In this document: positions 1,290-58,963 of the stretch, one piece after another
How the letters are laid out: each line of letters opens with the position of its first letter
Position numbering within the stretch: position 1 is the stretch's first letter
Assembly: GCF_030028105.1 (NCBI RefSeq)
Contig: NC_092401.1
Location: forward strand, 26,712,399-26,776,398
DNA length: 64,000 nt
DNA from: Mobula birostris
Lineage: Eukaryota
Reading direction: 5' to 3'
The notes under the pieces: model-generated
The model's database searches: none
The model's input: the letters and a program-made list of their open reading frames with translations, nothing else
Told to the model about the DNA's origin: nothing
Translations under genes and position numbers: made by a program

Positions 1290-1560
1290 CGAACAACTTC
1301 AGCAGATCAAGCTGCATCTATGGAGGGGATAAATGATAGACGTTTCAGGCAGAGGCCCTTCATCAGGATTGGAAAGGAAGGGGGCAAAATGAGAATAAGG
1401 TGTGGGGAGGGGCAGGAGTAAGAAGCTGACAGGTGATAGGTGAGGGGGAAGGTGGGTCAGTCAGGGAGATGAAGTGAGAAGCAGGGAGGGGAATGATGGA
1501 ATAGGTAAAGTAGAGTGGACCATGGGAGAAAGGGAAGAAATAAGAGCACCAGAGGGAAGT
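1290..1560 (-). mobile_element. Penelope-like 3' fragment
   Basis: Same terminal family with a hammerhead and a GA-rich UTR. Confidence 0.6.
1334..1371 (-). ncRNA. Minimal hammerhead ribozyme motif, core intact, stem I eroded
   Basis: Reverse complement: CAATC CTGATGA A GGG CCTCTG CCT GAAAC GTC TATCA. Confidence 0.6.
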
Positions 1561-3244
1561 TTCTTATTCATAGATGTACTGGGCCCCAAAACTTCACAGA
1601 ACCATTGAAAATAAGCCATTCTGTTCATCCTATCCCTACTTTCCATTCCCTTGATTAATTTCATTGGCAGCTTTTTTTGCTTGGAGTGAATGGGGGGATG
1701 CAAGGTTGTTGAAAGGATCCTGCACTAAAAATCTCTCTCTCGATGAACAGACAGAGATTCAACAGAGTTCAAGCTCATGAACTTACCACCAAGATCAACT
1801 GAACATTCTGCAGCATGGCAAAGTAATTGGACTGTGAGGCTGGCAATGAACTTGGAGTTCAATTCTAGAGTTTGGTGCACTGCTGTCGGCTACACCAAGG
1901 GTCATGTCAAGGATCAAGGCCTGGAGGTTGACTGGGCGTCTGGAAGTCATAACCCAATGGCTGAAAACTGCAGACCCGTGTGTCTGGGTGGGTGGGAGGA
2001 AGGGAGGAAGGGAGGAAGGAAATCGGCTTGTTTTGCTGTTGTTGCTTCGGCACTTGGTATGTTCTGTTTTGTTGTGTTCTCTGTTCTTCTGAGCACAGTG
2101 GGTGCACTATGTTGACGGCAGAGTGTGTGGTGACACTTGTGGGCTGCCCCTGCCACATCTCAAATTGTGTCGGTTGTTACTGCAAACTATGCATTTCACT
2201 GTATGTTTCGATGTTTATCTGATTAATATATAAATCTGAAAGGCACTTGTTCCTATTACAACTGTGAGATGAAGCAGCTGTCCTGTGTCCCTGAGCCTGC
2301 ATGGCTAGTCTGTGGATTTAGAAACACTGTCGTTGCTGGCAATCCCTCCACATAGTGCCTGCCTCCACCACCAAGTGTCTGAGTTTTGTTCTGATGCAAT
2401 GTCCTGACTTTAACTCTGTTTCTCCCCTCCTCCTCTGCTGAGAATTTGTAACAATGATTTTGGATTTCCAGATGAGAAGGTCATTCAACATGCTAGACCC
2501 CGCAGTGGCAGTGATCATTGACGGTTTATAGCCAGATGTAGGTAAGGACTTTGGGGGAGGCCGGTGAGTAATGCGATATATGGCCGCTCTTCCTGAAACC
2601 ATCAAAGTGAAGTCCAATTCTCAGACTAGGCTGGGACTTGACCACCAGCTCTGGGTTATTGAACCCATCATTTTTGGGTTAGAGTTAACACAGGAGTAAA
2701 ATGGTGGAAATCTGCAATTCCCACTTAGAAAGACTGTGGATTCTTGGAATCCTTTGTCACTTTCCAGATAGCATTAGGCAGGGGTGAGAAGATATGGAGT
2801 GAAGGTGTACAACGAGAGTATAAATCAGGCAGGTGATAATTCTGTAGTAGATACTCTTAACTCATTTGCCCTCCAACTATTCTTAAATGGTGTGGATAAC
2901 TTCACTCACCTCAACACTAAACTCATTGCACAACCTCCAGACTCACTTTCAAGCACTCTACAACTCATGTTCTCAGTATTATTTATTTACTTTTTATTTA
3001 TTCTTTTTTTGTCTTATTTTGCACATTGGTTGTTTTTCAGTCTTTGTGTATCTTTTTGTCATTCATACTATTGTATTTTTTTGTTCTACAATGAATGCCT
3101 GTAAGTATTTGGCGACCTATGTGTACTTTGATAATAAATTTACTTTGAACTTAAGGGCTTAAGGGTCCCTCTCAGGTGCAGAACTAAAAGATTGCTCAAA
3201 TGATGCTGAATCATGGTCTTCCAAGGATATATTCTCTCCTGGGG

Positions 3245-3250
3245 TTTATT
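3245..3250 (-). terminator. Candidate polyadenylation signal AATAAA of AP1M2
   Basis: AATAAA on the minus strand about 190 nt downstream of the stop codon. Confidence 0.45.
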
Positions 3251-3438
3251 TTGGAGGACCGTGTGCTGATAGACTTCTGAAACTGTAGGTGTCTGTCCTT
3301 AATTATTGCACAGTTAGCTGAACAGAACAAAAGTTAACAAGATGTTTAAGGCATTCGTCACAACAGTACTGTAATACGTAGCCCAATTCAAACCAATGAG
3401 AGAGGAAAATTAGAAGTTTCCTGAATCCATCAAAACTT

Positions 3439-3461
3439 TTAGTGTGTCCGCAGTTGGTAAT
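3439..3461 (-). CDS. AP1M2: AP1M2 exon 12 coding part (DYQLRTH-stop)
   Basis: Acceptor TTTTACAG followed by AT TAC CAA CTG CGG ACA CAC TAA. Confidence 0.94.
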
Positions 3462-4119
3462 CTGTAAAATAAGACACGGAGTTAAACTAGTATCTGTTTT
3501 CAGAGAGGAATCCATTCAAACAGTTTGTAAAATTTGAGATCAGTCTTTGACTTTTTTTAAAATAATCACTAAGTTTAGAGAGCAACTGTATTTACAAAAT
3601 AATCCAAACAATCTCAGTTTTACAAGGGAGGTTTAACCCCTTGTGAACCACCAACCCTCTTTCACACCGATCTCACTGTGAGGCAAAGCACTGGACATTT
3701 CAGGCTGCTGCACTACAAGTTTGATCCCTGTGGACAGCCAGGGTGGTGTTAAAGATCTGCTTTGATGGAACCTGAATCTTCAGCCTGGTATTCAATGCCC
3801 CTTCTGCTTACTTGGGTGTAGAGGAAAGCCACCTTGATATTGTCCACCATTGTTAAATAGCCCAGAGTCAACACATGAAGAATTATTCAAAGACAGCTTC
3901 TACCTTGCTGTTACAAAACTACTGAACACTCCTGGTATGTTCAGATAGACTCTGAGGTCAAAAGTCTAACTTCTTATGACTCTGCACCTTATTATCTGCC
4001 TGCAATGTACTTTCTCTCTTAACTGTAGCACTTTGTATTCTGTTGTTTTCCCTTGTACCACCTCGATGCACTGATGAGATAAAACGATGGGTCTGGACAG
4101 CATGCAAAAGCTGCTTTTA

Positions 4120-4372
4120 CAGCTCAGGGCGTTCCAGAGTGTGAGGTTCAATTCTGGCGCCGTTCTGTAAGGAGACTGTACGTACTCCCCATGGAATGCA
4201 TCAGTTCTTCCCCAGTGTCCTGGTTTCCTCCCACAGTCCAAAGACATACTGAGTAGGTTAATCGGTCATTGGCAATTGTCCTGTGATTAGGTTGGGGTTA
4301 ATCGAGGTGGTGGGATTGCTGGGCGGTGTGGCTGAAAGGGAAGAAGGGAAGAATTCCGAAATAAATAAATAA
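4120..4372 (+). mobile_element. tRNA-derived V-SINE (HE1-like); other copies at about 21475-21745, 29520-29925 (-), 33480-33750 (-) and 34945-35240
   Basis: B-box-like GTTCAATTC followed by the V-domain GGTTTCCTCCCACAGTCCAAAGAC and an (AATA)n tail. Confidence 0.7.
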
Positions 4373-5885
4373 AGCAAAGTTTTCACTGAACCTTGGTACC
4401 TGTGATAATAATCAATGAGTTTACCAATTTGTTAATTGTCTTGTTTCACAACTGAGTACAGAACCCAGGCGGTCAATATTAGGTGATGGAGGTGATTGAA
4501 ACCAGTGAGGTGAAGGGTTAAAAGTTTAGCAAACTATGTTATGTGGTAGGATGATTTATGTTTGAAATTTTTCACTGTGGAACAGCAGTTTATGCTTCAA
4601 TTTCATAGTTTCAGTGAGTTGCATTAAGCATGTTTTTTGGTGAAGAATTATCATTATGGACATTGGAGGAGCAAGTTCTCCATAGTAGACAGCTATCAAT
4701 GTTGCGATTCTGATATGGGCTTAGCAATTGTTGGTGTGGTGTGATTTTTAAACAAAACCCACTATAATTCAATGCCCCTTGTGCTTGCTTGTGCATTGAG
4801 AGGAGCCAGTTTAATGTTGTCCACTATTGTTAAATAGCCGAGCATCAATTCATGAAGCATTATTCAAAGACAACTTCTACTAGCTGTTATAAAACTATTG
4901 AGCAGTCCCCTAGTACGTTAAGATGGACTTTTGACCTCACAGTCTACCTCATTATGACCTTTCACCTCATTGTCTACCTACACTCATAAAGAGGAAGATT
5001 AGTTTTATTTGTCACATGTACAACGCAATATACAGTGAAATGTGTTGAACTTTCTCTGCAACTGTAACACTCTTATGATCTTCCCTTGTGCTGCGTCAAT
5101 GCACTGTTGCAACTAAATGACCTGCATGGACGGTATGCAAAACAAAGATTTTCAATGTGACTTGATACATGTGACAGTAATAAGCCAATTTATTCACTCA
5201 ACAATAGGCATTTGCAGCCAAGAAGCCCCTTTGGGAAACACACCCAAGCACCTTTGGGATTCCGACTCCATTGACATCAGAAGGGGAGATGTATAACCAG
5301 ATGTCGGCTGAATTACTTCAAAAGTTCCTTTTCTCTCACACTGTGGAGGTTCCATCACAGATCAAGGAACAGCAAATGACAGGAAATGCAGTACAAAGAA
5401 TCTCTATTGGTGGTGGTCATAGGGTGGCTGACCGACACATATCTTCCTCTTAAAAATTGTTTAACATCAATAATTTATGTGTGTTTTCAGATCTTTTCAG
5501 TTCATTTAAAACTAGGGTTTTTTTTATATGTGAATGTGAAAGAGATTTGAAAACATTCTTAATAACAGAGATATTTAAACACTATTACAACTTCCACAGC
5601 TGGCCAGGTTGGAGATGGGCTTTTCCAGCTGTTAGGGAGAGAGCCACCTCGCCAGGCACTTGTCCATTTGATGCCACCAGGTTCTGGGCTGGCTTGGACC
5701 AGATGAGTGGAGGTGGGGAGAAGGGCTGGGGGAGGGTGGAGCTCCTCTGTGGGAGAGGGTGTTCCTGCTGGAGAATCAAAATTCAGACCAATTCCCACAC
5801 ATTTGGACAGTACAAAGACCCCTCTTTGACAAGCAACACATTGTCACATTTTATCCTTCCCCACCCCTGCCACGGCTGCACTAAC

Positions 5886-5961
5886 CTCCACTCTGGGTGA
5901 TGTATCTGACCCAGGGGAGTGCCTGGTAGCCACTCTTCTCAATAATCTTCATGTACCTCAC
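5886..5961 (-). CDS. AP1M2: AP1M2 exon 11 (VRYMKIIEKSGYQALPWVRYITQSG)
   Basis: Acceptor TTGTAG; donor GTTAGT; 76 nt. Confidence 0.96.
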
Positions 5962-7202
5962 CTACAACATGGGGAAACAAACCAAGTGTTACTCACCGGA
6001 CCTGTCAGAGAGGCATCAGAATACAAGACGTTGAACATAAAAGACAAAACATTACAGTACATTTCAGGCCCTTCAGCCCACAACATCGTGCTGGCCTTTT
6101 AACCTATTCTAATATCAATCTTAACCTTCCCTTCCATATAGATAGGCACATGGATATTGAGAAATGGAGAGCTACTAATGGATCTGCCTCTACCACCAAC
6201 CCTGACACATCCTCCACTGTGTATAAAAAAAAATTTAGCTCTGACATCCCCCCTATAAATTCCTAGACTGCCCAACCCTTCCATACAACTCAGACCCTCA
6301 AGTCCTGGCAACCTTCCAATAAACCTTCTTTGCACTCGTTCCAGTTTAGTGACATCTTTCCGTCAACAGCGTGACTAAAACCTGCACACAACTGTCTCCA
6401 AATCCAAACCTCACTTGGACCAGTATTGATTGGCTTCTGTCCTGCTCTGTTTAACCTGGTCAGCCTTGAGTTGATAGAACATAGGACAGTACAGCACAAT
6501 AACCTACGGCAAGTTCAACCTAACCCTTCACTCCCGCATAGCCCTCTAGTTTTCTTTCATCCACATGCCTATCTGAGAGTTTAAGTGCCCCTTATGAATT
6601 AGCCTCTATCACCACCCCTGGCAGTGCATTCTCTGTACCTACCACTACTCTCTGAAAAAAGCTGCCTTTGAACATCTTGCTTAGAATGAATGTCATTTTT
6701 AGACGCTGTATGATCTACTGTGTTCCTCCACATTTTGAGTGTGATCATTTGATATCCCCCCATACTTTCCACCAATCAATCTTAAAATTATGCCCCCTTG
6801 TGTTAGCCATTTCTGCCCATCGACTACAGAATGCCTCCTATATCTCATAAACCTCTATCAAGTCACCTCTCATCCTCCTTTGCTCAAACTACCCTCATAA
6901 GACATGGTCACTACTTCAGGCAGCATCCTGGTAAATCTCCTCTGCATCCTCTCTACAGCTTCCATATTTTTCTTATAATGAATTGACCAGAAATTAACAC
7001 AATACTCCTAGTATAATTCATGTTCATTTTAATATTCACTTGTGTCTCTCTTGCACTGTGTTTCTGCCAAAACTAACTTTTCAGTTTTGAGCTACCTGCC
7101 TATTTTTGTCCTGGTGAACATCTAGCAATCCAAATTAGCTGATGGTTTGGAGGGACAAGTTTCGACCTCCACACTGGACACCACAGATACACCAGCACTG
7201 AC

Positions 7203-7328
7203 CTGTACCCCTGAGACGGTGAAGTAAGGGATCTCGAATTTCACGGTGATCGGTGGCCTGCCTTCATTGTTCTCATTCTCCACGCTCGGCAGGCCAAAGT
7301 GGGCCCGCATCAGGTATTCTTTTCCTCC
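7203..7328 (-). CDS. AP1M2: AP1M2 exon 10 (GGKEYLMRAHFGLPSVENENNEGRPPITVKFEIPYFTVSGVQ)
   Basis: Acceptor GGATAG; donor GTCAGT; 126 nt. Confidence 0.95.
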
Positions 7329-8162
7329 CTATCCAGGGGGAGATACAGATAGAGAAGTTAAAACAAAAGTCAATTTATAAAATGTAATGGTTAACAAGCT
7401 CAGATTAATTTATTTATCATCTGTCCATCAAACCATATAGTGAAATGCATCTTGCATTAATAAACAACACAAGCTAGGGGTGCGCTGGAGAGAGCCCACG
7501 AGAGTAGCCACACATTTGGATGCTGGCTGGTTCAAAGTAAACTCATTATTATACACATATATACGCACGCACACGCATACACCTTCTCCAGAACAGGACT
7601 CTGGGCCTTCAGTTGGGCTTTGGCTTCCAGACCTCCTGTCAACCTTCAAGCTTCGATTTTCAGGATTGGCTCCACAAATCAGTACATTTTTCCTTGCCCT
7701 CCCTTCTTTGGCCTCTTTTCAGTCTTTCTGTCTAGGCTCATTGATATTCCACTTGCATTTATGTAGCACCAAAGGATACCCACCACTCTGTAAATAAACT
7801 TGCCCTGTAAATCACCGTGGAACTTACCCCCTCATCTTAAGTTGTATGGCTGTTACTGTGAAACATTTTGACCCTGAGGAAAGGAAACCCTCTGCCTCTC
7901 ATAAACTTATGAACTTCACATCTCCCCTCAGCCTCTACCACTCAAAAGAGAACAGCTGTAGTTTGTCTAGCCTCTTCTACACCCTCTCCAAAGCCTATAC
8001 ATCTTCTCTGTAACATGATGACCAGGATTGAATGCCGTACACTAGGTGAGCAGGAGTGGGATTCTAACAGATGACTTTCTGACTGAGATTTGGATCTCAC
8101 CCGCTGCTGACCCACCTAACCTCGTTCCAGCTGGTGCAAGGAATAAAACAGCTCTCACTCAC

Positions 8163-8321
8163 GGGCAAGCATTTGATGGTCCACACCACTGTGTTATTTT
8201 CGGGAACCCACTTGGCGCTCCCCACGCTGGTCTTGAACTTGGGCGTGTCAGCATCACTTGGCACAGGGATAATGATTTCCACATTGTTGGCGACAGACTG
8301 CTTCTTGAACTGACTTTTGGC
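8163..8321 (-). CDS. AP1M2: AP1M2 exon 9 (AKSQFKKQSVANNVEIIIPVPSDADTPKFKTSVGSAKWVPENNTVVWTIKCLP)
   Basis: Acceptor AACAG; donor GTGAGT; 159 nt. Confidence 0.96.
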
Positions 8322-9269
8322 CTGTTGGGAGGAAAAAATATTAACATTTGCCCTCCTACCACAGACCTCCTCCTTTTTGTACCATTTTTAAAGCTATATT
8401 TCTTATAACTTACAGTAGTTTTATGTCCTGCATAAAGCAAAAAAAATCACCTCAAATGTCAGTGATAATAAACCTGATTCTGAACCATCCTGCCTGTCCT
8501 GAACTTCATGAGCCTTACAGTGACTGCTTCAATATCTCACTGAAGCGACCTCATCATGATCAGCCTGGAAAGTGTGGAGCTTCTGACTTTTCCAGTACAT
8601 AGTATCATTCAGTATAGAAACAGGCCCTCAGTCCAAATGGTCCATGCCAACCAAGATCCAAGCTAGTCCCATTTGGCCCATATCCTCTAAACATTTCCAA
8701 TCCAATGTACCGGTTCCAATGTCTTTTAAAAGTTGTGCATTAATCCACATACATACCTCACTTTGTGTAAAAAGTTGCCCCTCGGTTTCTATTAAAACTC
8801 TCCCCCCAAACCTTAAACACATACCACCTAGTTCTTGATTCCCCACCCCTGGGAAGAAGACTGTGTCGGATCCTGATACTTCAGCAATCCAAAGGATTTT
8901 TGGAAGTCAAGAATGAGTCAAAAAAAAACTTACTGCTAAGCAATTTTATTAAGTGCTACAAGAACAAAGAACAAGCAAAAGAGGAGCTGAGAGAATGAAG
9001 AAAAGACAAAGGACAGAGCAGCCGTAGTTGTCTCATACTCAGAGTAGAGATAACACAATTGCAGTGATAACAATTAACCTACAAAATAGCCTGAGTAAAG
9101 TGCCGTGACACCTGCTACTGAAAACTACAAAAATACAGAAGCAACTGTACTGTAATCACCAATTACATGTATGTCAGCAATTATGTAATAAATACAACTA
9201 CGCATTGGAAAGTTCAAATTGGGGATGGTGGCTGATGCTGAATGATAGTGGCATCTAAGAAGCTGTTAG

Positions 9270-10187
9270 ACACACGGATATGCAGGGAATGGAGAGAGCA
9301 GATCACACGGATATGCAGGGAATGGAGGGAGCAGATCACACGGATATGCAGGGAATGGAGGGAGCAGATCACACGGATATGCACGGAATGGAGGGAGCAG
9401 ATCACACGGAATGGAGGGAGCAGATCACACGGATATGCACGGAATGGAGAGAGCAGATCACACGGATACGCAGGGAACGGAGGGAGCAGATCGCACAGAT
9501 ATGCAGGGAATGGAGGGAGCAGATTACAAGGATATGCAGGGAATGGAGGGAGAAGATTACAAGGATATGCAGGGAATGGAGGGAGAAGATCACATGGATA
9601 TGTAGGGAATGGAGGGAGCACATCACAAGGATATGGAGGGAGCAAATTACAAGGATATGGAGGGAGAAGATCACGTGGATATGGAGGGAGCAGATCACAT
9701 GGATATGCACAGAATGGAGGGAGCAGATCACACGGATATGCAGGGAATGGAGGGAGCAGATCACACGGATATACACGGAATGGAGAGAGCAGATCACACA
9801 GATATGCAGGGAATGGAGGGAGCAGATCATAAGGATACGCAGGGAATGGAGAGAGCAGATCGCACAGATATGCACGGAATGGAGGGAGCAGCTCACACGG
9901 ATATGCAGGGAATGAAGGGAACAGATCACACAGATATGCAGGGAACGAAGGGAGCAGATCACACGGACATGGAGGGAGAAGATCACAAGGATATGCAGGG
10001 AAAGGAGGGATGTCAATCACATGGATATGGAGGGAGTAGATCACATGGATATAGGTAGTAGATCACATGGATATGGAGGGAATGGGGGTAGTAGATCACA
10101 CGTATGCAGGGAATGGAGGGAGTAGGTGACACGGATATACAGAGGATGGAGGGAGCAGATCACACAGATATACAGGGAATGGAGGGA
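9270..10187. repeat. 33 bp minisatellite (CACACGGATATGCAGGGAATGGAGGGAGCAGAT), roughly 30 units including 24 bp and 21 bp variants
   Basis: Direct tandem repetition, embedded in a CR1 3' end. Confidence 0.95.
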
Positions 10188-10945: not shown

Positions 10946-12031
10946 CTAAAATCAAACACAAAGTCCTTCAGTAAGTTTCTTCTCTACAGTGTCTGAATGA
11001 CTGTTTAGATTCTGGGAAGGCCGGCAGGATTGTCGGGTTATCCCAAGTGGAGCTGCGAACACCTCTTTCATGATCTTGGGAGACTCAGTCTCAATCCATC
11101 ACACCACCATGTGATGTCCATTGCCTTGTTAACATCTCTGGTGAAGATGGTGCTGAACATCACAGCTTCTCTCCTTTATAAGTGCACAGTGGAGAGTATC
11201 CTGACTGGTTGCATTATGATCTGGCATGGGAACACCAATGTCCATGGAAGGATCTACTGAAAGTGGTGGGCACAGCCCAGTCCATCACCAAGGACGCCCC
11301 ACAAACCACCATCTAGGCCGTGCTATTTTCCCACCTCACCCATTGAGCATGAGGTGCGGGAGCCTTAGATCCAAACCACCAGGTTCAGGAACAGTTATTA
11401 CCCATCAACCACTGGGCTCTTGAACCACAGTGGATAACTTCACTCACCTCAATGTTAAACTAAATCTACACACTACAGACTCAGAATTCATGTTCTCAGT
11501 ATTTTTTATTTAGTTATTGACAATAACTTATTTGCATGATTTGTCATCTTTTCCACATTGGTTGTTTGTCAGCCTTTATTTATGTTTACTTTTTCATAAA
11601 TTCCAAATATGTTTATTTTCCTGTAAATGCCTGCAAGAAAAAGCATCTCTGCGTGGTAAATGGCAACATGTGTGTTTTCTGATAATAAATTTACTTTTTG
11701 ACTTTGATTTTAAGCTGTGGTCTCCAACAAGGTTGTGACTCAGACATGGCTTTTTTTTTAATTAAGGTTTGTACAGATGGTTTTGGAGACAGCAACGTGG
11801 GGCGTTAGTGGTCAGGCCTCCACTCCATGTTCAAAAATCAACGACATGGATGTGGGTGGGTGGGACAGTGGAATGGGGCTGGTTTTGTTGTTTTGTTGCT
11901 TGCTGTGTTCTGTGTTGTTCTGTTGAGCATTTTGGGTACGCTACATTGGCGCCATCGTGTGTGTTAGTTGATGACGTAAGCGAATCTGAATCAGAATTTC
12001 CTTCTTCTGTGGACATTACGTTGAGAAGAAT

Positions 12032-12506
12032 GAACAGCTTCCATCAGACTGTGAAGAGGTGAGGGTCACTCAGTCTGGAGAGTGAACAGCTTCCATCGGA
12101 CTGTGAAGAGGAGTGGAGAGTCACTCAGTCTGGAGAATGAACAGCTTCCATCAGACTGTGAAGGAATGAGAGTCACTCGGTCTGGAGAATGAACAGCTTC
12201 CATCAGACTGTGAAGGGGTGAGGGTCACTCAGTCTGGAGAGTGAACAGCTTCCATCAGACTGTGAAGGGGTGTGAGGGCCACTCGGTCTGGAGAATGAAC
12301 AGCTTCCATCAGACTGTGAAGGGGTGAGAGTCACTCAGTCTGGAGAATGAACAGCTTCCATCAGACTGTGAAGGAGTGAGAGTCACTCGGTCTGGAGAGT
12401 GAACAGCTTCCGTCAGACTGTGAAGGGGTGTGAGGGCCACTCGGTCTGGAGAATGAACAGCTTCCATCAGACTGTGAAGGGGTGAGAGTCACTCGGTCTG
12501 GAGAGT
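12032..12506. repeat. 52-55 bp minisatellite, 9 units
   Basis: GAACAGCTTCCATCAGACTGTGAAGGGGTGAGAGTCACTCAGTCTGGAGAAT starting at 12032, 12084, 12139, 12191, 12243, 12297, 12349, 12401 and 12455. Confidence 0.95.
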
Positions 12507-42593: not shown

Positions 42594-45319
42594 TTCATTC
42601 CTCTCAATAGATTATGCCTGACCTGCAGAGTTCCTCCAGCATTTTGTGTGTGGTGCTCTGAATTTCCAGCATCTGCACGGTGTCTTGTGTCCAGATATCT
42701 AATGGAGAATAAACAATGGTACTAATGTAGGATTAATTTAGATGTATGGTTTAAAAAGAATATGGAAAATAGTAAGACACTCAAAATGCTGGAGGAACTC
42801 AGCAAGTCGAGCAATAGCAATGAAGGCGAATAAGCTCCCTTCTTTTTTCACCCTTTCTTTCCAATCCTGATGAAGGGTCTCAGCCTAAAACATTGGCTGT
42901 TTTTCCCTCTCCATAGATGCTGCCTGACCTGTTGAGTTCCTCCACCATTGTGTGTGTGTTGCTGTGAATCCTTTTTTCATTTGTTTCATATCAATATTTC
43001 TGTTGTGTTATTCTCACACAATGCACCCTCGAACACAAGGCAGAAGCCTCCAGGTTCTGTTTGCTGGTGATCATTGCTGCTTTACTGTTAAGGAGAACAC
43101 ACGGAGTGGGCCTCCAGCTCTGTGGTTTAACTGTGACGCTCTCCCTTTGTGCAATTTTTTTTTGTTTATCTTCCCAGCCAGTCGAAACCACAAGCTTTGT
43201 CCAACATCGACAAGAAAATGTGAGGCCTTTCGTCTGAATCACCACCCCCTCCTCCAAAGTTCAGCCTCTGTCCAACCTGCACAGCACATGCTAAACCCCA
43301 AAAGCATTTTAAGCGCCAAAACAACAAATACAAGAACTGTGTAAGCCTTGTCCTAGCTGGAGTGAGTTTGCAGGGTGGTTTACAGGGAAAAATATTGCAC
43401 AAAGTGAGAGGAGATGGAAGATGGGAAATTTACATCACTGTTGACATTGTAGATTACTGCAATGTCCTAAATCTAGAGTAATTGAATCTTACCCTGCTAG
43501 CCCATCTAAGTTCGTCCCATTTGTTCATGTTTGGCCCATATCTTTCCTAAGTCAACCATCCAGCTCCTGAACCAGTGTGGATAAATTCACTCACCACAAC
43601 ACTGAACTGATCGCTGAACACAACCTATGGGCTCACTTTCAAGGACTCTACAACTCATGTTCTCAATGTTATCTATTTATTTATCATCTGTCTATCTATC
43701 TATATATCTATTTATTTTATATATTTGCACAGATTGCCTTCTTTTGCGCAATGAGTGTGTGACAGCCTTTATGTGTTGCTTTTCATTGATTCTATTGCAT
43801 TTAGTTGTTCTGTGAATGCTGACAAGAAAATAAATCTCAGGGCAGTATACAGTGACATATAAGTACTTTGATAATAAATTTACTTTGAACTTTAGAGCTG
43901 TCTGAGCGCTTTTTAAACGTTGTTAGTGTAGCTGCCTCGACCACTTCCTCTGGCAGCTCATTACACGTTCTTCGTAAAAACATGAGAAAAAATTCAGTTG
44001 ACAATCTGATTCATAAAACTACCATGTCCCGTGGTTTAAAATTATTCTCTGACCTTCGCTCTGTATAGGGTGATTGTCATTTTTGTAATTTTAATACCCA
44101 GAAACTTACAGCACAGTTCAGACCCTTCAGCCCACAGTCTTGTGCTGCCCCATGAACAAAGATCAATCTAACCCTTCCCTCCCAACATATACCTCCATTA
44201 TATTTATTGCATTTTAAAAATATGTTCTTCATGATTATTTCGTTTATTGGATCCAGAGTAACAAACATTTTACTCTCCTTTACGCTTCCATACTGAAGTA
44301 CGACAATAAACAACCTTGAATCGTGAATTTTTCTTTCAACCATGTCCCTAATGTATCTGTCTCTACCACCATCCCTGGCAGGATGTTCCATATACCCAAC
44401 ACTCTGTGTAAAAATCCTTCGGTACCTCTGCCATCTCCCCTATACTTCCTCCAATCACCTTCAAATTCTACCCTCTTAGATGAGTAAATTTCACTCTGGG
44501 GAAAGGTCTCTGGGTGTCTAAAACCTGCACTGCAGGTAAACATTAAGCTGCTAGTCGACAGTGTGGTAGATTGTTGAGGATAAGAGTCTATCTCATAGCC
44601 CTGTGGAACCATTTAATGGTCTTAAAACAGCAGGGTAAAAGCTGTCCTTGAGCCTGGCAGCATGCCTGTCACACTTTTGTATTTTGGGAGGGGGGGCGAA
44701 GAACAAATATCCAGGATGGGTGGGTCTGCGATTGTTCTGGCTGCCTAACTGAGACAGTGGGAAATGAACGTGCTATCGGGGGTGGTGGTAGAGGCAGATA
44801 CATTAGGGACATTTAAGAGACTCGTAGATAAGCACGCGGATGACAGAAGACTGAAGGGCCGTGTAGGAGGAAAGGGTTAGATTGATCTTAGAGTAGATTA
44901 AAATGTTGGCACAGCATTGTAGGCCAAAGGGAATGTGCTGGGCTGTCAAGTTCGATGTTACAATTTATTCTTCATCTGCTACTGATTTACTTTGCTCTGT
45001 AGTTATGTACTATGTAATGAATTGATCTGTATGAACAGTATGCAAGTTTCCCACCATCCAGGACATCTCATTACTACCATCAGCAAGGAGGCACTGTACA
45101 GATGCCTGAAAATGCACATTCAACTTCTTCCCCTCCACCATCAGATTTCTGAACAGTCCATGAACACTGCTTCATGACTTTGCTCCCATTTGCACTAATG
45201 TATTTTAAAAAATATTTTTATTGAGTCTGAGAGTATTTTTTATATACTGTAATGTATTTTTGCTACAAAAAAAACCGGTGGTGTATGTCAGTGATAATTC
45301 TGATTCTCTGGAAAGTTAT

Positions 45320-46930
45320 CTCACGTGCAAAGTGGCAATCCTGGACCAAACTGGAATCACTGAAGGATGCTCGACTGCTGAGACAGGACCGGAATGCAAT
45401 CACTTCCTACAAAGTGAAACCAAGCAACATTAGGCGACAGCAAGGCTTCGCTCCAAGCCCGATGCTTTTTATGCTCGCTTTGACTGTCAAAACACGAAGG
45501 CACCTCCGCAAATTCCCACAGCCTCTGATGACCCTGTGATCTCAGTCTCTGAGGCCAATGTGAGAGCATCTTTCATGAGGATGGACCCATGGAAAGCATC
45601 TGGCTGAGATGCGGTATCTGGCCGAGCACTAAAAATCTGTGCTGGAGTGTTCACCTATATCCTTAACCTCTTGCTTTGTCAGTCTGAGGTACCTGCCTGC
45701 TTCAAGCAGTCTTCAATTATACCAGTGCCCAAGAACATGATAACCTACCTAGATGACTATTGTCCAGTAATGCTTACATCCACAGTGATGAAGTGTTTTG
45801 AGAGGTTGGTGATGAAACATTTCAACTCCTTCCTGAGAAGTGACTTGGATCTGCTCCAATTTGCTTACTGGCACAGCAGGTCACCAGCAGATGTCATCGC
45901 ATTGGCTCTTTACTGAACCCTAGAACATATGGACAGCACAGATGCATACATCCTCTTTATTGACTCCAGCTCGGCATTCAATACCATCATCCCCTCAAAA
46001 ATAATCAACGAGCTTCAAGACATTGGCCTCAATACCTCCTTGTGTAATTGGATCCTTGAATTCCTCACTTACAGGACCCAGTTAGTTCAGATTGGCAACA
46101 ACATCTCCACCACAATCTCCATCAGCATAGGTGCACCACAAGGCTGTGTGCTTAGTCACTTTTTACTCAGGACTGTGAGGCTAAGCACAGCTCCAATGCC
46201 ATATTGAAGTTTGCTGATCACACCACTCTCGTAGGCTGAATCAAAGTTGGTGACAGATTAGCATATAAGAGGGAAATTGCAAATCTGGCTGAGTGGTGCC
46301 ATAACAACTTCACTCAATGCCAGCAAGACCGAGGAGCTGATTATTGACTTCAAGAGGAAGAAACCAGAGGTTCATGAGCCAGACCTCATCGGGGGATCAG
46401 AAGTGGATAGGGTCAGAAAACTTAAATTCCCCGGTGTTATCATTTCAGAGGATCTGTCCTGGGCCTGCCATGTTATGAAGGAAGCACGGCAGAGCCTTTG
46501 CTATCTTAGAAATGTGCAAAGATTTGATATGTCATCTAAAACTTTGACAAACTTCTACAGACATGTGGTGGAGAGTATATTGATTGGTTGCATCATGGCC
46601 TGGTATAGAAACACCAATACCCTTGAACAAAAATTCTGACAACAATTAGTGGTTAAGGCCCAGTCCGTCATGGATAAAGACCTCCCCACCATTGAGCCCG
46701 TCAACTGTACATGGAGCACTATCATAGGAAAGCATTCTCCATCATCAAGGACCCGCTCCATCCACACCAGACCATGGCTACTCTGGCTGCTGCAATCAGG
46801 AAGAAGGTTAGGACCCAGCCCATCAGGTTCAGTAACAGTTATTACCCCTTCAACCATCTAGCCAGCACTGGACTATTCCCATAACCGTGGACTCACTTTC
46901 AAGGACTCTTCATCTTATGTTCTTGATATT
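45320..46930 (+). mobile_element. Degenerate Rex1/Babar-type LINE reverse transcriptase
   Basis: Frameshifted ACFKQSSIIPVPK...[52 protein letters not shown]. Confidence 0.88.
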
Positions 46931-49269: not shown

Positions 49270-50375
49270 CCTAACAAACTACAAGCCCTGGTATTACAGG
49301 AAAGATTCTAGTATGGATGAAGCTGATTGGCAGGAGGCAAAGAGTGGGAATAAAGGGAGCCCTTTCTGGTTGGCTGCCAAATAATGGTGTTCCATGGGGG
49401 TCAGGATTGGGGCTGATTCTTTTTACATTATATATCAATGATTTAGATGATGGATTTGATGGCTTTGTTGCAAAGTTTGCAGATGATATGAAGATAGGCA
49501 GGGCCAAGTGGTTTTGAGGAAGTAGAGAGGCTACAGAAGGACTTGGACAGATTAGGAGAATGGGCAAAGAAATGGCAGATGGAATGTGTATGCTCATGCA
49601 CTTTGGTAGAAGAAATGAAAGGGTTGACTATATTCTAAATGGAGAGAAAACACAAAAAAATAGAGACACAACTTGGGATTCCTTGTGCGGGATTCCTCAA
49701 AGGTTAATTTAGCGGTTGAGTCTGTGGTGAGGAAGGCAAATGCAACGTTAGCACTTTTTTCAAGAGGACAAGGATATAAAAGCAAGGATGAAATGTTGAG
49801 AATTTATAAAGTACTGGTGGAGCCTCACTTTGAGTATTGTGAGCAGTTTTGGCCCTCTTATCTTTGAAAGCATGTGCTGAAACTGGAGAGGGTTCAAACG
49901 AGGTTCAGAAAAGCGATTCCAGAATTTAATGACTTGTCAGATGAAAAGAGTTTGATGGCTCTGGGCCTGTATTCACCAGATTTCAGAAGAATGAGGGGTG
50001 ACTTCATTGAAACCTATCGAGTGGTGAAAGGCCTTGATAGAGTGGGAGTGGAGAGGATGTTTCTGATGACGGGAGACACAGGAGAGTCTAAGACTGTCTC
50101 AGGATAGAAGGGTGTCCTTCTAGAACAGAAATAAGGAAGAATGTCTTTAGCCAGAGAGTGGTGAATCTGCGGAATTCTTTGCCACAGGCAGCTGTGGAGG
50201 CCAAGTTTTTTTTGTGTATATTTAAGCCAGAGGTTGATAGATTAAATATTGATTGATCAGGTCAAAAAAGAATACAGGAAGAAGGCAGGAGATTGGGGCT
50301 GAGAGGAAAATTGAATCAGCCATCATGAAATGGTGGAGCTTGTCGATGGGCCAAATGGCTTAATTCTGCTCCTTT
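49270..50375 (+). mobile_element. CR1-type LINE 3' portion
   Basis: RQRVGIKG...YINDLDDG...KFADD...PHFEYCEQFW...RGDFIETYR, followed by a CR1 3' UTR. Confidence 0.88.
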
Positions 50376-52565: not shown

Positions 52566-55500
52566 GTGAGTTCATTACTGTGCATACGAGGTCTTGATAA
52601 TTACAAATCATTCACCTCTATTTTAGCAGATGAAATTTCAAGCACCAATATGTCAATTTTACTAAATCTAAGTATATATATAAAACCATTGGCAGTATGA
52701 GTTAGTTTAAAGGAAAATGTAATTTTTCCCCACTTTTAAGTATACTCCGTTTTCCTTTGTGTGAATGACATTGCCTGTGTGATACAGTGAGCTTGCAGGT
52801 GAGAGGAAAGCTATTTGCGAGTCCTGATGAAGGCTCAGCCCGGAACATTGACTGTTTATTCCCCTCTATAGATGCTACCTGACCTGCAGAGTTCCTCCAG
52901 TATTTCGTGTGCAAGTTTCCAACATCTGTAGAATCTCTTGTGTTTATTCTTGTTCATTAGTTGTTTTTCTCAATGAGTTTACAACATTAATCTTTCAATC
53001 TTGTGTGTGATCCAAAGTGTTGTTTCTGCTCTATAGTTACATTGTTGAGTATTTTAAATTTGCAGTCATTATTTCTATAGGGAGGACTACATCTTTTGAA
53101 TTTACACTGTTAACGGGTCTATCGTTGGAAGTCATAAAACTGAATAAAATCTTGTGTAGTTTTTACAGAATCCAACCAAAAGACCACTTGGCATAGGAGC
53201 AGAATTAGGCCATTCAGCCCTTTGAGTCTGTTCCATTATTCAATCATGGCTGACTTATAAGATCCTTCACATATTCTTTAACAAGTCAACATGTTTTGTA
53301 TTAATGTATTGTCAATGTGATTTCAATTGACATATTGAGGTGTGTGGTAATGTAGTAGTTACCTAACTAGCAGCCAGAACTATGGCATATTGATTCAGGG
53401 GTGTAAGTTTGGATCCAACCAGGACAGCTATGGGATTTAAATTTGGGTGATTACATAAACCCAGAATTAAAATAAGATGAATTAGTCTCAGTAAAACTAT
53501 GAGACTGTTGGATTTTCATTAAAAAACTGTCTGGTTTTCAAGAGGAGAGATGTGTTATCCTTACCCATTCTGGTCCATGTGTGACCAGTGAGGTTGACCC
53601 TTAACTGAAAATTATCTGACATCCACCATGTCAACATATTTTAAGAAATATGTTTTAGAAGTTATTTTGAGGAATTGTTTTAGTTAGTTTAAAGATTTAA
53701 ACAATTTGTTGGATGATTCAGTCTTGGGTTTTTGTTTAGTTCCCCAATGAATGGAACACAATTGTGTCCTTTGAAATATGATGACAGTTGCATGTAGGGG
53801 TATCTTTCTGTGACCTAGTTGAGGTTCTGACTACAAAGTACCACACGACATTTCAGTCACATGGTAACACACTCACTTCTGAATGTCAGGATCAAAGGTC
53901 CACGCTGGGCCAACAATACAAGGTCAAAGCAGAACAACCAAATACTAGGTTAACTTCTTGAGAGAAAGGCTGCTGGATGATATTCCAGGCAACTGGACAA
54001 TATTCCAATAAAATTATTAATCGAGTGCTTAATCCTTTATTCCTTGGAGTAGGAGGCTGAGGGGGTGACCTTATAGATCAAGAGGAATATAAAAGGGGTG
54101 AATGTGCACAATCTTTTTTCCCAGGGAAGGGAACTAAAACTAGAGGGTACAGGTTTAAGGTGAGAAAGAACATCTTCAAAAGGGACTTGAGGGGCAATTT
54201 GTTCACGCAGAGGGTGGTGTGTTTACAGAACAAGTTGCCAGTGGAAATGCTTGAAGAAGTGCATTTGGATTTGGATTTGGGTAAGTGTGTGGATAGGAGA
54301 GGTTTAGAAGGATATGGGTCAAAGGCAGGCAACTGGTTCCAGCTTGGCGGGCACTATGACAGGCATGGGCAAGTTGAGCCAAAGGCCCGTTTCCGTGCTG
54401 TAGGTTACCCATTCTAGCTGCTGGACCTGGAGACGGGAATATCACAAACTGAAGTGGAAGTTAGCCCTAGAAAATTATTGACTGGTTCTCAGTCATATCC
54501 AACAATGAAAGTGGAACCTGTGTGGTAGAGTTTTTAAAGTGGAAAAGCTATTATACTGGGATAGTTCCATTCTCTTGACCTTGGAAGTCCAGGTCCACTG
54601 GTACAAGTAATTGCCACAACTGGAGTCTTCCTTGCTTGTGGTGGATGACCACAACTTCTTCTACGCTTTGTCATGCCCTTCACTCTCCATGCAGAGCCAC
54701 CTTCCCAGCTGTTGGATCTTACTGTTGGTCTCATTCACCCTGTCTGTTGGAGCTGACTTTGCCTGCTAGGACAGGCATGTCCCTATCTCTCTTATGGGTC
54801 TCTCCTCACCTGTCAAAACATTGTACCAGGGTGTTTTAAATTCAAAGTCCAAGCAGCATACATGTATGTCACCATATATTACAATGATATTCATTTTCTT
54901 GTAGAAATTCACACGAAATTAATGAAATACAATAGAATTTATGAAAAACTATGAAGACTGACAAATAACCAAGTGCAAAAGAAAACAAATCATACAAATA
55001 ATAAAACAAATACATAAATAATACTGAGAACATTGAGTTGTAGAGTTCTTGAGAGCGAGTCTGTAGATTGTAGTCAGATCAGAGTTGAGGTGAGTGAAGT
55101 TATCCATGCCAGTTCAAGAGGCTGATGGTTGTAGAGTAATAACTATATTTCCAGATCCCCACCACCCTTGCTTTGACAGCACAGCAACAACCTGCATTTA
55201 CATTGTGCCTGAGTAAACCATAAACCTTAACCACAAGAGATTTTGCAGTTGCTGGGCATCCAGAGTAACACACACACACACAAAATACTGGAGAAACTCA
55301 GCCGCTCAGCCAGTGTCTGTGGAGAGGAATAAACAGTGGAGATTTTGGGCTGAGATCCTTCTTAAAACTTAAATGCTTATTGCCACATTTAACAACACAA
55401 CGTTTAACTGTCATCCTAAAGGAACATAAACCTAATTGCATTTATTCAACTGTTTTACAATTAAGTTCTGGGGAACTCAGATGCAAAATCTACAGGACCG

Positions 55501-55740: not shown

Positions 55741-56444
55741 ACTCACAAGAGCAGACTGCATCATATTTTATGATTTTGTGCATGTGACACTGGAAGATTA
55801 GCATTCACCCTACCGTTTAAAGACACAGAAACCAGTAATTAGCATGTCCTTTTCTGTGGCATACTAGAATTGTCAATTTTAAAAACACAGACTGCTGGGG
55901 GATCTCAGTGGGATGGGCAGCATCTGTGGAGGGAAGTGGACATTGGGGGCTTTGGGTGGAGACCCTTATCTGGCCAACCTGGAGCGTCAACTCTCCATTT
56001 CCCACTATCGATGCCTCCAGAAGACACGGTACATCATTAAAGACCCCTCACACCCTCTCCATGAACTGTTTGTTCTTCTGCCATCAGGCAGACGTTACAG
56101 GAGCATCAAAACTAAAACCACAAGGCTACTAAACAGCTTCCTCCCACAGGCGGTCAGACTGCTAAGCAGCTGCTCCACCTGACTCTGCTTTGGACACTTT
56201 TAACTCACACTGGACACTTATAACTGATTTTAACTGACATGTGGCTGTTGTGTTTTACTATTTATTGTTATGTTTATTATTTAGTGTTGCATTTGATATG
56301 TTATGATTGCACTGCCCCTGAGAAACGTTGTCTCATTCTGCCCTGCAGAGCTGATGTATGGTTAGAATGACAATAAAATTTTTTGAATCTTTGAATCTTT
56401 GATTCTGCCTGACCCACTGATTTCCTTCACTTTCTTGTGCACTG

Positions 56445-56735
56445 TCCCAGTTGACCAAGTTGCCTCAGTTTCCAGTTTCACCAGATGCCCTTGTTCCTTC
56501 AGTTATTCCAGCTTCCAGAGCTGCCTCTGTTGCCCAGCTCCTCCAGTTCCCCAATTGCCACATTTGCCCCAGCTGCCCCATTTACCCCAGTTGCCTCAGG
56601 TTTTCGGTTTCCTCAGTTGCCCCAATTTTCCCAGTTTCTCCAGTTGCCCAGTTCCTCCAGTTGACCCAATTCCTCAGTTTACCCAGTTCCCCCGGTTGCC
56701 GCAGTTGTTCCAGTTACTCCAATTTCCTTTGCTTC
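56445..56735. repeat. Degenerate ~9 bp tandem repeat (CCCCAGTTG-like)
   Basis: Repeated CCCAGTT(G/T/C) units. Confidence 0.8.
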
Positions 56736-58125
56736 AGATGCCAGTATCTTTTGCCTCCAAGAGTCAGGGTTATTTTATGTCACGGGTGAGTAAACAGGCC
56801 CTTTCCAAATTCCTATGTGAGGTTTCAGGAAAACATCCTTGTAGATAAAAGCAGATTTGCCCTGTTAGTTCAGGCAAGTTTCTTCCCTCATTCAATAAGG
56901 CTAAAGATGAGGTTAATTGTTCACTTATCTTATTACTGGTTGCACGATCTTCTTGTCCATGAGTCGGCTGCTGCACTTCCCTGAAAGTGGCACCACAGGT
57001 AGACGGGACGGTGAAGGAGGTTTTGCCCTTTATCACTCGAGGCAGAGAGAATAGATGTTATTTTGCAGTTATTTAAGACATTGATGAGGCTGCACTTGGA
57101 ATATTGTGCTCAGCTTTGGAAAGATGCCATTAAGTTTGAAGGAGTATAGAGGAGATTTACAAGGATGTTGCCAAGACATGAAGTTCTGAGCTGTTGGGAG
57201 AGGTTGAGCAGGTAAGGACTTCATTCATTGCAATGAGGGGTGACATTTTAGAGTCACAAAAGTCATGAGGAGCATATACAGGGTGTATGAACTCATCCTT
57301 TTTCCTAAGTTTGGAGAATCAAGGGCATAGGTTTAAGGAGAGAGGGAAGAGGTTTAATAGGAACCTGAGCGGTAAATTCTCAGTTTCACCCAGAGGGTGG
57401 TCTGTTGATTGAACAACCTACCCTATGAAGAGTTTAAGGCAGGATAGAAAAGGTTTTGGAGTATAGGCCAAACACAGGCAAATGGGATAAGCATCATAGT
57501 CAGGAGTGGGCTATGGAGGCCAAGTCATTGAGTTCAGTTAAAGCAGTGACTGTTAGATTCTTGTTTTGATTGTTGAGGGTGCAGGGAGAAGGGAGGATAA
57601 TGGGGCTGAGAGAAAGAAATTAGCTGCAGTTAAACGGTAGAGCAGATTTAGTTGACTGAATGGCCTAATTATGCTGTTTGGCCCATTGGCTACAGCATCA
57701 GCCAGTGTGTAATGGAATTAGGTTTATGTTTGACATACTGTACCTTGGGATATTTTCCGATCAACAGCGTTATCTAAATTCAAGCTAACAAATTAGTATT
57801 ATGCCTGGAAAATGTTCCACAACATTTTACTCTGTTCATAAATCTCAAGAGGAACATGCAAACTCCACACAGACAGCATTGAACCTGGGTCTTCAGTGTT
57901 GCGAGGCAATGGTTTAATCAGTGCAGTGTTGCTAAACCACGGTAGTGATTAGAGCTGTGTCACTTGTTTCAAGAACTGAATAGTTGAGGGGAAATAGCTC
58001 TTCCTGAATCTGTTCTTGAAGCTGTCAGTCAACTGTATTATCTGTCAGCCTGCTCACAAGCCCTTGTGTTAGGGTAACCCCTGTAGAGCCGGCTACAAGT
58101 GACTTACACTGGTCTTTCTCACTAG

Positions 58126-58264
58126 TCCTCCAGGTTAACACGGTTGGGTCGGAGAAGTTGAAATGCTTCACTCAAACACTGGAGGATTTCACCTGTGTCT
58201 GGGATGAAAGGAACAACACAAGCAACAGCAGCCAGTACAGATTCTTCTACCAGTACCAATACCA
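58126..58264 (+). CDS. EPOR: EPOR exon 2 (LQVNTVGSEKLKCFTQTLEDFTCVWDERNNTSNSSQYRFFYQYQY)
   Basis: C-F-x4-EDF-x-C-x-W motif of the class I cytokine receptor D1 domain; acceptor CACTAG; donor GTAAGT. Confidence 0.9.
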
Positions 58265-58602
58265 GTAAGTTGTCCGTTTCTCAGCTACAGTGCCCAACAC
58301 AGGTTCTGGATCATTGATCCAGGGACATGAGTTTAATTCCCATCACAGCAGCAGGGGCATCTTCTCAAGTCTTTATTAATTCATGTTTGAGGTACACACT
58401 CATTGGGGACCATGTCTCTTTCAGAAAATGTGCAGAAAAGTTTTATTACTTAGGAATCCAATTTTTTTCTATGATGATAATATAGACAAAAGTCATTCCA
58501 GGATATTTCTTTGTCCAAGACACATACAAGTCCTGTGGCACCAGTAGACTGCATCCATAATAATAGGACATCTGTAGAGTTGCAAAATCCTGACCTTATT
58601 CA

Positions 58603-58963
58603 AGCAACACACACACAAAATGCTGGCGGAATTCAGCAGGCCAGGCAGCATCTTTGGAAAAGAGTACAGTCAACATTTTGGGGTGAGACCCTTCTTGGCC
58701 CAAAACGTCAAAGTTCTGCTGAAGGGTCTCGCCTGAAACTCTGAGTCCTGCTGAAGGGCCTCGGCCTCAAATTTCGAGTCCTGCTGAATGGACTCGGCCT
58801 GAAACATCGAGAGTCCTGCTGAAGGGACTCGGCCTGAAATGTCGAGAGCCCTGCTGAAGGGTCTAAGCCCAAAACGTCAACTGTACTCTTTTCCACGGAT
58901 GTTGTCTGGCCTGCATTTTGTGTGTGTTGCTTGGATTTCCAGCATCTGCTGTTTTTCTCTTGT
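58603..58963. mobile_element. Palindromic Penelope-derived insertion with a 15 bp TSD and an internal hammerhead array
   Basis: Inverted arms; TCCTGACCTTATTCA (58588-58602) and TCCTGACATTATTCA (58964-58978). Confidence 0.82.
58712..58883 (+). repeat. Tandem array of five 32-35 bp hammerhead-core units (CTGCTGA variant)
   Basis: CTGCTGA at 58716, 58748, 58781, 58816 and 58851, each followed by a stem II-like segment and (G/C/A)AAA. Confidence 0.85.

Follow-up and report, generated by a model that had tools for sequence, protein, structure and literature searches.

Decayed copies of a minimal hammerhead motif in the probable pseudo-LTRs of an abundant Penelope-like family in Mobula birostris

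We analyzed a 64,000-nt stretch of the Mobula birostris genome (contig NC_092401.1; hereafter, the window), in which a 38-nt hammerhead-like motif recurs on both strands. All 17 sites named in the preliminary description aligned as copies of one family in the 64-kb window. The plus-strand sites are at 22821, 32655, 35781, 37059, 38614, 42556, 42862, 52819 and in an array at 58693-58883; the minus-strand sites are either full (1334-1371, 26483-26520, 33950-33987 and 38052-38089) or placed approximately (~36808-36838, ~39291-39318, ~55335-55361 and ~58668-58694). Beyond these 17, further partial copies occur at ~34028 (+), ~41980 (+) and ~55973 (-). Ungapped matches to the motif with at most 10 mismatches numbered 14, and none appeared in any of 20 dinucleotide shuffles; its first 16 nt, allowing up to 2 mismatches, matched 12 times where 0.09 were expected. 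Chance does not account for the repetition. The density had been put at about one copy per 4 kb; with 24 motif-bearing arms or units, and 29 fragments of the family once the array interior is set aside (16 plus, 13 minus, an about equal use of the strands), the real figure is a little higher. The very large family size that had been proposed was upheld by the summed contig depth, which gives an order of magnitude only, not a copy number: the family runs to at least tens of thousands of copies.

The dispersed copies differ widely in length. Long ends without a tail lie at 26423-26797 (-; motif 26483-26520) and 37994-38327 (-; motif 38052-38089), both with a broken GAAA, and in a 5′-truncated long end at 1295-1560 (-; motif 1334-1371) stem I is without its 3′ strand. 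A short end with a tail occupies 22803-22951 (+; motif 22821-22858, palindrome broken). Among the short copies, 38614-38686 (+) begins at the front edge of stem I and has lost A6; 52815-52945 (+) starts at the same edge, there with G instead of the family C, and carries a tail; 55229-55361 (-) starts inside the motif and also carries a tail; and 55878-55973 (-) is heavily decayed. The copy nearest the family majority is 42549-42690 (+; motif 42556-42593), in which G12 is lost. In the longest copy, 35451-35912 (+) comprises a pyrimidine-rich 3′ untranslated region, a decayed motif (35781-35818) and the tail. Motif-less family fragments were found at 37232-37360 (mixed orientation), 6700-6757 (+), 27262-27337 (-) and 30401-30454 (+).

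Seven head-to-head pairs, each a 5′-truncated copy with an adjacent inverted copy, are present in the window. At 32563-32714, a minus arm (32563-32643) meets a plus arm that begins at ~32643 and whose motif (32655-32692) has lost G12. The pair at 33878-34121 has a short spacer and two heavily decayed motifs, at 33950-33987 (-) and ~34023-34060 (+); the pair at 36713-37183 joins a short minus arm (36713-36838) to a long plus arm (motif 37059-37096); and the plus-arm motif of the pair at 42763-42970 (42862-42899) lacks G12. The other three units are bounded by target duplications: unit 39238-39436 (39224-39450 in all) by 14 bp (39224-39237/39437-39450, 1 mismatch), unit 41909-42102 (41896-42115) by a perfect 13 bp (41896-41908/42103-42115), and unit 58601-58963 (58588-58976) by 13 bp (58588-58600/58964-58976, 1 mismatch). 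These are 3 of the 14 loci searched, and a weak fourth duplication lies at 42548. All three units have the ~30-nt tail on one arm only, namely the right arm in the first two and the plus arm in the third, whose minus arm (58601-58694) is tailless. The 3′ ends fall into two groups, 9/29 at +129 to +131 and 10/29 at +91 to +107, and contig loose ends in the region of copy 42556, at 42652 and 42677, also speak for a tail. Two such groups, or tails, are described for Penelope-like elements (PLEs) in passages of PMC8557442, PMC11167929 and PMC3846280. The 5′ truncation, the adjacent inverted copy, the one-sided 30-40-bp tail and the short target duplication likewise resemble the endonuclease-bearing PLE units in the relevant parts of PMC8557442 and PMC3846280. 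The Mobula duplications, however, are 13-14 bp rather than the 8-10 bp of the rotifer passages in these papers, and most Mobula units, unlike the PLE units there, are only 130-360 bp long.

The longest copy (motif 35781) runs upstream into a frameshifted C-terminal tail of a GIY-YIG endonuclease (35271-35450, +). This remnant was the best match in the window to a 97-position endonuclease profile (25.0 bits, ending at position 96), a score reached by 0/1000 shuffles of the 600 nt upstream and by 3/60 whole-window shuffles. Two frames of the remnant match protein P0115 (E 0.01 each), and the loose-end majorities of the contigs there, read by eye, give FVEHLCSV, NSTSHSHSDM and LRLEEQHLI, all of which keep register with the profile. 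Five long copies have 200-280 nt of upstream sequence in common. The remnant had no match in Pfam, no homologue in word-index protein searches, and no hit by plain tblastn or by hmmsearch with a first profile of distant invertebrate-type endonucleases; a first frameshift-aware profile had its top match there, at 22.6 bits against a window-wide shuffle maximum of 28.2. Together with the head-to-head arms, the tail and the target duplications, the remnant bears out the suggested Penelope link, and on these sequence features the repeats are read as the pseudo-LTRs, or ends, of a very abundant Penelope-like retrotransposon. Since neither an intact element nor a reverse transcriptase of the family lies in the window, we can only infer the autonomous parent.

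Short copies prevail: 24/29 fragments start at most 45 nt upstream of the motif or within it, and the summed contig depth is far higher on this stub than on the endonuclease remnant. The ~130-nt stub might accordingly be a separate non-autonomous, SINE-like or retrozyme-like element, which would be cut by its hammerhead, circularized and copied by a borrowed Penelope enzyme; non-LTR retrozymes are indeed reported from one chondrichthyan genome in the portion of bioRxiv 10.64898/2026.07.22.740005 consulted. We consider this improbable, as the stubs grade into the long copies that reach the endonuclease, and the head-to-head arms, tail and target duplications are features of the parent class. 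Animal non-LTR retrozymes, as outlined in parts of that preprint (see also PMC7229834), resemble the Mobula family in being non-coding repeats with type I hammerheads, a PLE link and one chondrichthyan host. They are nevertheless defined by at least two consecutive tandem units (51-972 bp), every one with its own complete hammerhead, whereas in the only tandem of the window (58693-58883) the units measure 32-35 nt, their cores are broken, and the run as a whole lies within a PLE-type insertion. The earlier label "retrozyme-like" does not fit a window with no cut-to-cut tandem units of retrozyme size, a few hundred bases, and no copy starting at the cut site.

The family majority, derived from contigs aligned to copy 42556 and from the window columns, has every part of a minimal hammerhead, including the CUGANGA and GAAA boxes, whose retention had been expected of the consensus, and the UH cleavage step. 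In the contigs on this copy (run X1), G12 is restored in 55% of the depth and C17 in 55%, and the CUGAUGA positions show no alternative letters among the rows listed. The extra base 9/10.1, G10.1-C11.1 and the palindromic 15.2-16.2 are all seen in the window columns (A 17/18, G 16/18, C 14/20, C 13/20, G 13/20), while the G12 column has A in the majority (11 A, 9 G, n=20). Minimal hammerheads in the pseudo-LTRs of metazoan PLEs were described in 2014 by Cervera and De la Peña (PMC4209133), and the Mobula motif is of this already described kind. As in the sections of that paper on the motif, it is a type I hammerhead without stem III, with a 4-5-bp stem I and the three features just listed; the minimal layout first noted here, with an extra A after position 9 and a palindromic ACGT in place of stem III, agrees with it. 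Mostly single dispersed motifs, opposite-strand pairs 100-700 bp apart and an occurrence in fish PLEs are further likenesses to these sections. Stem II, by contrast, has 3-4 bp in the Mobula family and 7-8 bp in their Schistosoma examples, and 24 motifs in 64 kb is far denser than their 4,000-9,000 per genome, which count intact motifs only. The searched portion of supplement file 2 of PMC4209133 contains no shark or ray term, and our literature searches (listings, with most subscription papers and repeat databases outside them) returned no description of the family in sharks or rays.

The copies in the window are no longer whole. Of 24 copies scored for integrity (17 full length, 7 partial), CUGANGA is kept in 10 and GAAA in 7; both boxes and the UH step survive in 2, and none combines these with stems I and II and the ACGU palindrome. 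Copy 1334-1371 keeps both boxes with the 3′ strand of stem I gone (2/5 pairs); in copy 22821-22858 the two boxes and both stems I and II are preserved and the stem III palindrome is broken. A search for CTGATGA...GAAAC gave 2 matches (0.43 expected), one a family copy and the other unrelated. The motif in the exact form first given has no intact occurrence in the window, and the Rfam search that had been proposed, run on the window, found no hammerhead family at E<=1. The picture of a window seeded with working ribozymes was therefore not sustained. Changed letters are concentrated at CpG sites (65/158, against 61/519 elsewhere in the motif), and non-CpG changes in the core (15/168) and at other motif positions (46/351) do not differ significantly (P 0.19), so the core is not better kept; the pattern fits neutral decay that is quickest at four CpG sites, the catalytic G12 among them. 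The idea that some dispersed copies have been retained as functional ribozymes and cleave host transcripts could draw on the two copies with intact boxes and on family contigs in two runs (X15, X16) guessed to be RNA. It is very hard to reconcile with the integrity count, in which even the best two copies are without stem I or the palindrome, with the lack of excess core conservation, with the even strand use, and with the statement in PMC4209133, in the part consulted, that minimal motifs show hardly any cleavage, even as dimers.

Covariation in stems I and II had also been anticipated. Within the family none was seen among 15 window copies (2 pairs; shuffles 227/500), as expected because the copies are dead descendants of one template. 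Across unrelated families with the same core, compensatory changes do appear in stem I, where pair 2 is paired in 25/29 clusters, which are not independent (shuffled mean 13.6; 0/10000); the fourth pair of stem II gave a weak signal (494/10000), stem II being set by the search pattern. Covariation is seen only between families, in stem I and weakly at the fourth pair of stem II. Several of these unrelated families sit just behind GIY-YIG-like frames. The 120 exact-core loci of a metagenome scan included none like the Mobula family outside the motif and no one-strand hammerhead-only tandem shorter than 200 nt. Single copies fold with z-scores of -1.0 to -1.7, which is not distinctive. In the dimer folding model, the double-hammerhead form (-19.9 kcal/mol) is less stable than the best dimer fold (-33.7), and would therefore need help.

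The copy ends bear on the template. The cut site is spanned by 21/29 fragments and none of the 29 starts at its predicted position (+28), suggesting that the template RNA was likely uncut. The 5′ starts cluster, with 13/29 at -14 to +10 and 0 at +11 to +33 (P about 0.002 under uniform starts); the ends were placed by local alignment of copies 10-20% diverged. This absence of cut-site starts is in line with the green anole Poseidon element PAc (Frangieh et al. 2024, PMC11167929), for which, in the sections available, uncut RNA was the main template in vitro and reads that end at the cut site were not observed. For the Mobula family, RNA ends were absent from the aligned contigs. The anole element also has its hammerhead in the pseudo-LTR near the start of the reading frame, and two internal starts of reverse transcription that explain the tail; the evidence in those sections is biochemical, whereas in the Mobula family it comes from copy ends. 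Taking the pyrimidine tract and the CAG at stem I for a splice acceptor was rejected, the front-edge copies having no common upstream exon sequence.

Taken together, the repeats are very probably decayed pseudo-LTR copies of an abundant Penelope-like retrotransposon, with a complete minimal hammerhead in the family majority and in none of the 24 window copies, and likely reverse-transcribed from uncut RNA. The element RNA would begin at the front edge of the motif, to judge from about four copies that begin at -4/-5 and from an initiator-like match, although such a motif occurs once per 92 bases. The target would be nicked by the element enzyme at positions 13-14 bp apart, and reverse transcription would begin within the RNA, either ~100 or ~130 nt behind the first core base, which would yield the ends without and with a tail, respectively. 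A copy initiated in the 5′ repeat would reach the RNA start and end there as a ~130-nt stub; one initiated in the 3′ repeat would continue into the 3′ untranslated region and the endonuclease and break off at varied places, and a second priming would produce the inverted arm. Neutral decay would follow insertion. In the active element, the motif is predicted to cut after GUC only with the help of a second copy or of the element's protein.

The hammerhead-only tandem run at 58693-58883 (+), inside unit 58601-58963, is the only unusual piece and may record how the element RNA was copied. It consists of one partial and five further units at spacings of 32, 33, 35 and 35 nt, with the predicted cut site, or the position 2 nt past it, joined to the front edge of stem I at each joint. 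All five units carry A6-to-C, the core of every unit is broken, and in the folding model the run adopts other hairpins. Copying slips and template jumps are indistinguishable as its origin from the window alone. We envisage, as an unlikely but specific scenario, that the hammerhead lies in the first 33 nt of a capped RNA, from which a ~32-nt capped piece is cut off in the cell; the telomerase-related enzyme, on reaching the capped 5′ end, would add a base opposite the cap and jump to the 3′ end of the released piece, once or several times, leaving the run as a genomic fossil of in-cell cutting and repeated short-template copying. Consistent with this, the run lies within a single target duplication, its opening unit, at the arm junction, is partial, and its joints carry 1-3 extra purines and a G in place of the family C. 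Units 2-4 differ at 3-5 of 33 nt and the two arms at 5 of 28 over the motif; because these divergences are similar, the run and the insertion are probably of about the same age. On uncut RNA, however, a 2-nt microhomology is also available at the GA behind the cut site, which is one among 8 GA sites of this kind; a C-to-T common to units 1-4 and a loop change common to units 3-4 point to DNA-level duplication; a 14-nt perfect repeat flanking the run suggests a later duplication; and A6-to-C in all units and the restriction to one locus also weigh against jumping. Literature searches (listings, most subscription papers lying outside) yielded nothing on Penelope enzymes that jump repeatedly between templates or on a cap-derived G. 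If true, the scenario would provide in-cell evidence of cutting by a minimal Penelope hammerhead and the first sign of repeat-addition-like behavior in a Penelope enzyme.

At present the finding matters little in itself, the kind having been known since 2014 and the window copies being dead. The function of Penelope minimal hammerheads is called unclear in the part of PMC8557442 consulted, and the question for the field is whether they cut in cells, and what for. So abundant a family is a good natural record, in which copy starts and rare joints can be counted genome-wide; joints that concentrate on the cut site and carry a cap-derived G would support in vivo cutting and template jumping.

A copy of the hammerhead repeat was present at all 17 sites named in the preliminary description. 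When up to 10 mismatches to the 38-nt motif were allowed, 14 ungapped matches were found in the window, and none of 20 dinucleotide-shuffled sequences gave a single match. A profile built on 11 of these matches detected 32 fragments at E<0.001, and removal of three array-internal ones left the 29 family fragments counted here. The motif is embedded in a repeat unit of ~130-150 nt. We scored 24 copies, of which 17 are full length and 7 partial, for the hammerhead parts: CUGANGA was kept in 10 and GAAA in 7, and both boxes with the UH step in two. The intact motif originally described was found in none of the 24; of the two best-kept copies, 1334-1371 retains 2 of the 5 stem I pairs and 22821-22858 has a broken palindrome. 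Most of the decay falls on four CpG sites, where 65 of 158 letters were changed, versus 61 of 519 elsewhere (P about 1e-14). One of these sites, which survives in 4 of the 20 copies aligned, spans C11.1 and the catalytic G12, which is the general base of the hammerhead (PMC6155905). The non-CpG core was conserved no better than the remaining motif (15/168 versus 46/351 changed, P 0.19), and covariation in the stems, whose absence counts against the preliminary reading by its own terms, was not seen among 15 window copies. In two arms, at 41966-41985 and 39319-39335, an internal deletion has removed part of the motif, and in the former the CUGAUGA box is gone between two GTC triplets; these two copies belong to a subfamily with other sequence 3' of stem I.

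To look beyond the window, contigs from four public sequencing runs were aligned to 42400-43100 at 80% likeness. On this stretch, which also includes a second repeat, run X1 placed 89,487 contigs and run X5 144,633. The summed depth in X1, which is not a copy number, was 417,502 on the motif versus 5-9 on the unique flanks, and, read as an order of magnitude, it indicates that the family has at least tens of thousands of copies. The second repeat, at 42400-42520, is itself of very high copy number (summed depth about 1.6 million in X1). The majority letters in the X1 contigs restore G12 and C17 (55% each), and no alternative letter appeared at the CUGAUGA positions among the 40 rows listed of 70. 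The source element thus had a complete minimal hammerhead, whose cleavage is predicted. In a folding model, the double-hammerhead dimer reached -19.9 kcal/mol versus -33.7 kcal/mol for the best dimer fold, in line with reports that minimal motifs have low activity (PMC4209133).

An exact-core scan of metagenome contigs yielded at least 120 loci, which come from other families; none of those listed resembles the window family outside the motif. Among the loci listed, which fall into 29 flank clusters that are not independent, pair 2 of stem I was paired in 25 clusters (as C-G, G-C, U-A or A-U), against a shuffled mean of 13.6 (0/10000). Endonuclease-like frames lay near the motif at five of the loci listed; two of the five had weak Pfam GIY-YIG scores, below the curated cut-off (E 0.0008 and 0.03), and one led to proteins with reverse transcriptase domains. 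At two loci from unrelated families (L008:1642-1722 and L023:4259-4339), minimal hammerheads stand head to head, 26 nt apart, in a fold-back layout like that of the window.

The proposed Penelope origin of the repeat was borne out by an upstream endonuclease remnant, paired arms, a tail and target duplications. Five long copies share a pyrimidine-rich upstream sequence of 200-280 nt, and the longest, ending at 35912, continues into 35271-35450, where pieces in three frames resemble the C-terminus of GIY-YIG-like endonucleases. This remnant was not detected by Pfam, two protein searches, tblastn or a first profile; for a later profile of 147 relatives and 97 positions, with frameshifts allowed, it was the top site in the window (25.0 bits, alignment ending at position 96 of 97). 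That score was reached by 3 of 60 whole-window shuffles; when the 600 nt preceding the motif were shuffled 1000 times, no shuffle reached it. The remnant is itself repeated (contig depth up to 48,778 versus 2.9 in X1), and its loose-end majorities, read by eye as FVEHLCSV, NSTSHSHSDM and LRLEEQHLI, agree in register with both the profile and a matching protein, P0115. This protein appears to fuse a LINE-type reverse transcriptase piece to a Penelope-type endonuclease tail, and is probably a gene prediction that spans two insertions. Seven head-to-head pairs were found, and target duplications of 14, 13 and 13 bp were detected at 3 of 14 loci searched, each flanking a unit with the tail on its right arm only. 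Head-to-head arms, a one-sided tail, a target duplication and two groups of 3' ends, as given below, are published marks of endonuclease-bearing Penelope-like elements (PLEs) (PMC8557442, PMC3846280, PMC11167929). The family probably had an autonomous parent element. In the family majority, an ATG at +49 (first core base as 0) lies 21 nt past the predicted cut, and its reading frame stays open across the repeat and on into the tail once a single-nucleotide gap of the window majority is filled from the contig loose ends. The element's protein may begin at this ATG, as has been described for rotifer pseudo-LTRs (PMC3846280).

The copy ends, like the family anatomy and the decay pattern, are shown by the data. 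Of the 29 fragment starts, 5 lie at -199 or further upstream, 16 at -44 to +10 (13 of them at -14 to +10), none at +11 to +33 and 8 at +34 to +57; the 3' ends comprise 9 at +129 to +131, 10 at +91 to +107 and 10 scattered. The start-free gap surrounds the predicted cut between +27 and +28 (P about 0.002 under uniform starts). Since 21 of the 29 fragments span the cut site and starts avoid it, the most straightforward explanation would be an uncut template RNA. Such a template would resemble that of an anole element, for which the evidence is in vitro rather than from copy ends as here: core mutants left insertion unaffected, and the motif cleaved only with protein present (PMC11167929). About four copies begin at -4/-5, and the family sequence there fits YYANWYY, the initiator consensus, which is matched once per 92 bases. 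Drosophila Penelope is reported to have an internal promoter with an initiator (PMC2377424). We infer an RNA start at -4/-5, as well as priming sites of reverse transcription; the stubs would have been copied by run-off on the 5' repeat.

A tandem run at 58693-58883, consisting of one partial and five units with spacings of 32, 33, 35 and 35 nt, sits inside a single target duplication, between an inverted and a direct arm. The two arms differ at 9 of 78 positions, 5 of them within 28 motif positions. Among units 2-4 the pairwise differences amount to 3-5 of 33 nt, rising to 7-8 in comparison with unit 5, and a G replaces the family C in four of the five units and also in the solo copy 52819. 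A reverse transcriptase can copy a cap, and the run could have arisen by the enzyme jumping off the capped 5' end onto a ribozyme-released piece, as every joint connects the front edge, via 1-3 purines, with the cut site or a point 2 nt past it. The R2 enzyme is known to add bases when it jumps between templates (PMC8857657); our literature search found no paper on cap copying. We nevertheless consider this origin improbable: of 8 GA sites, one follows the cut and would provide a 2-nt microhomology on uncut RNA, the changes shared by units 1-4 and by units 3-4 point to duplication at the DNA level, A6-to-C is present in all five units, the run is enclosed by a perfect repeat of 14 nt, and the case is a single locus. 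The retrozyme-like status suggested in the preliminary description was not supported, because the window holds no tandem of complete hammerheads.

The window is animal DNA with a GC content of about 45%, and its remainder includes the first coding exon of methylthioribose-1-phosphate isomerase (211-345, minus strand; E 1.8e-12 to PDB 4ldq), whose gene leaves the window at the left end, and a fibronectin-III exon of the class I cytokine receptor type (62322-62480, plus strand), with weak matches to the leptin receptor. Minisatellites with 33-bp and 52-bp units (9271-10187 and 12027-12504) are unrelated to the hammerhead repeat. A tRNA-like stretch (21391-21462, plus strand) scored 28.1 bits with Rfam, just under the cut-off, and is perhaps a pseudogene or SINE head. 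LINE remnants are numerous across the window, with reverse transcriptase pieces at 40672-41508 on the minus strand and at 21963-22304, 45608-46639 and 49338-49637 on the plus strand.

A search of published papers found none describing the family in sharks or rays, nor did the searched supplement of PMC4209133 name a shark or ray; a 2026 preprint (bioRxiv 10.64898/2026.07.22.740005) reports one chondrichthyan genome surveyed for retrozymes and PLEs. In the tested features, the window family matches the minimal hammerheads reported in PLE ends (PMC4209133). Judged from its sequence, the repeat would work like, and by these features is, the minimal hammerhead-bearing end of an endonuclease-type PLE.
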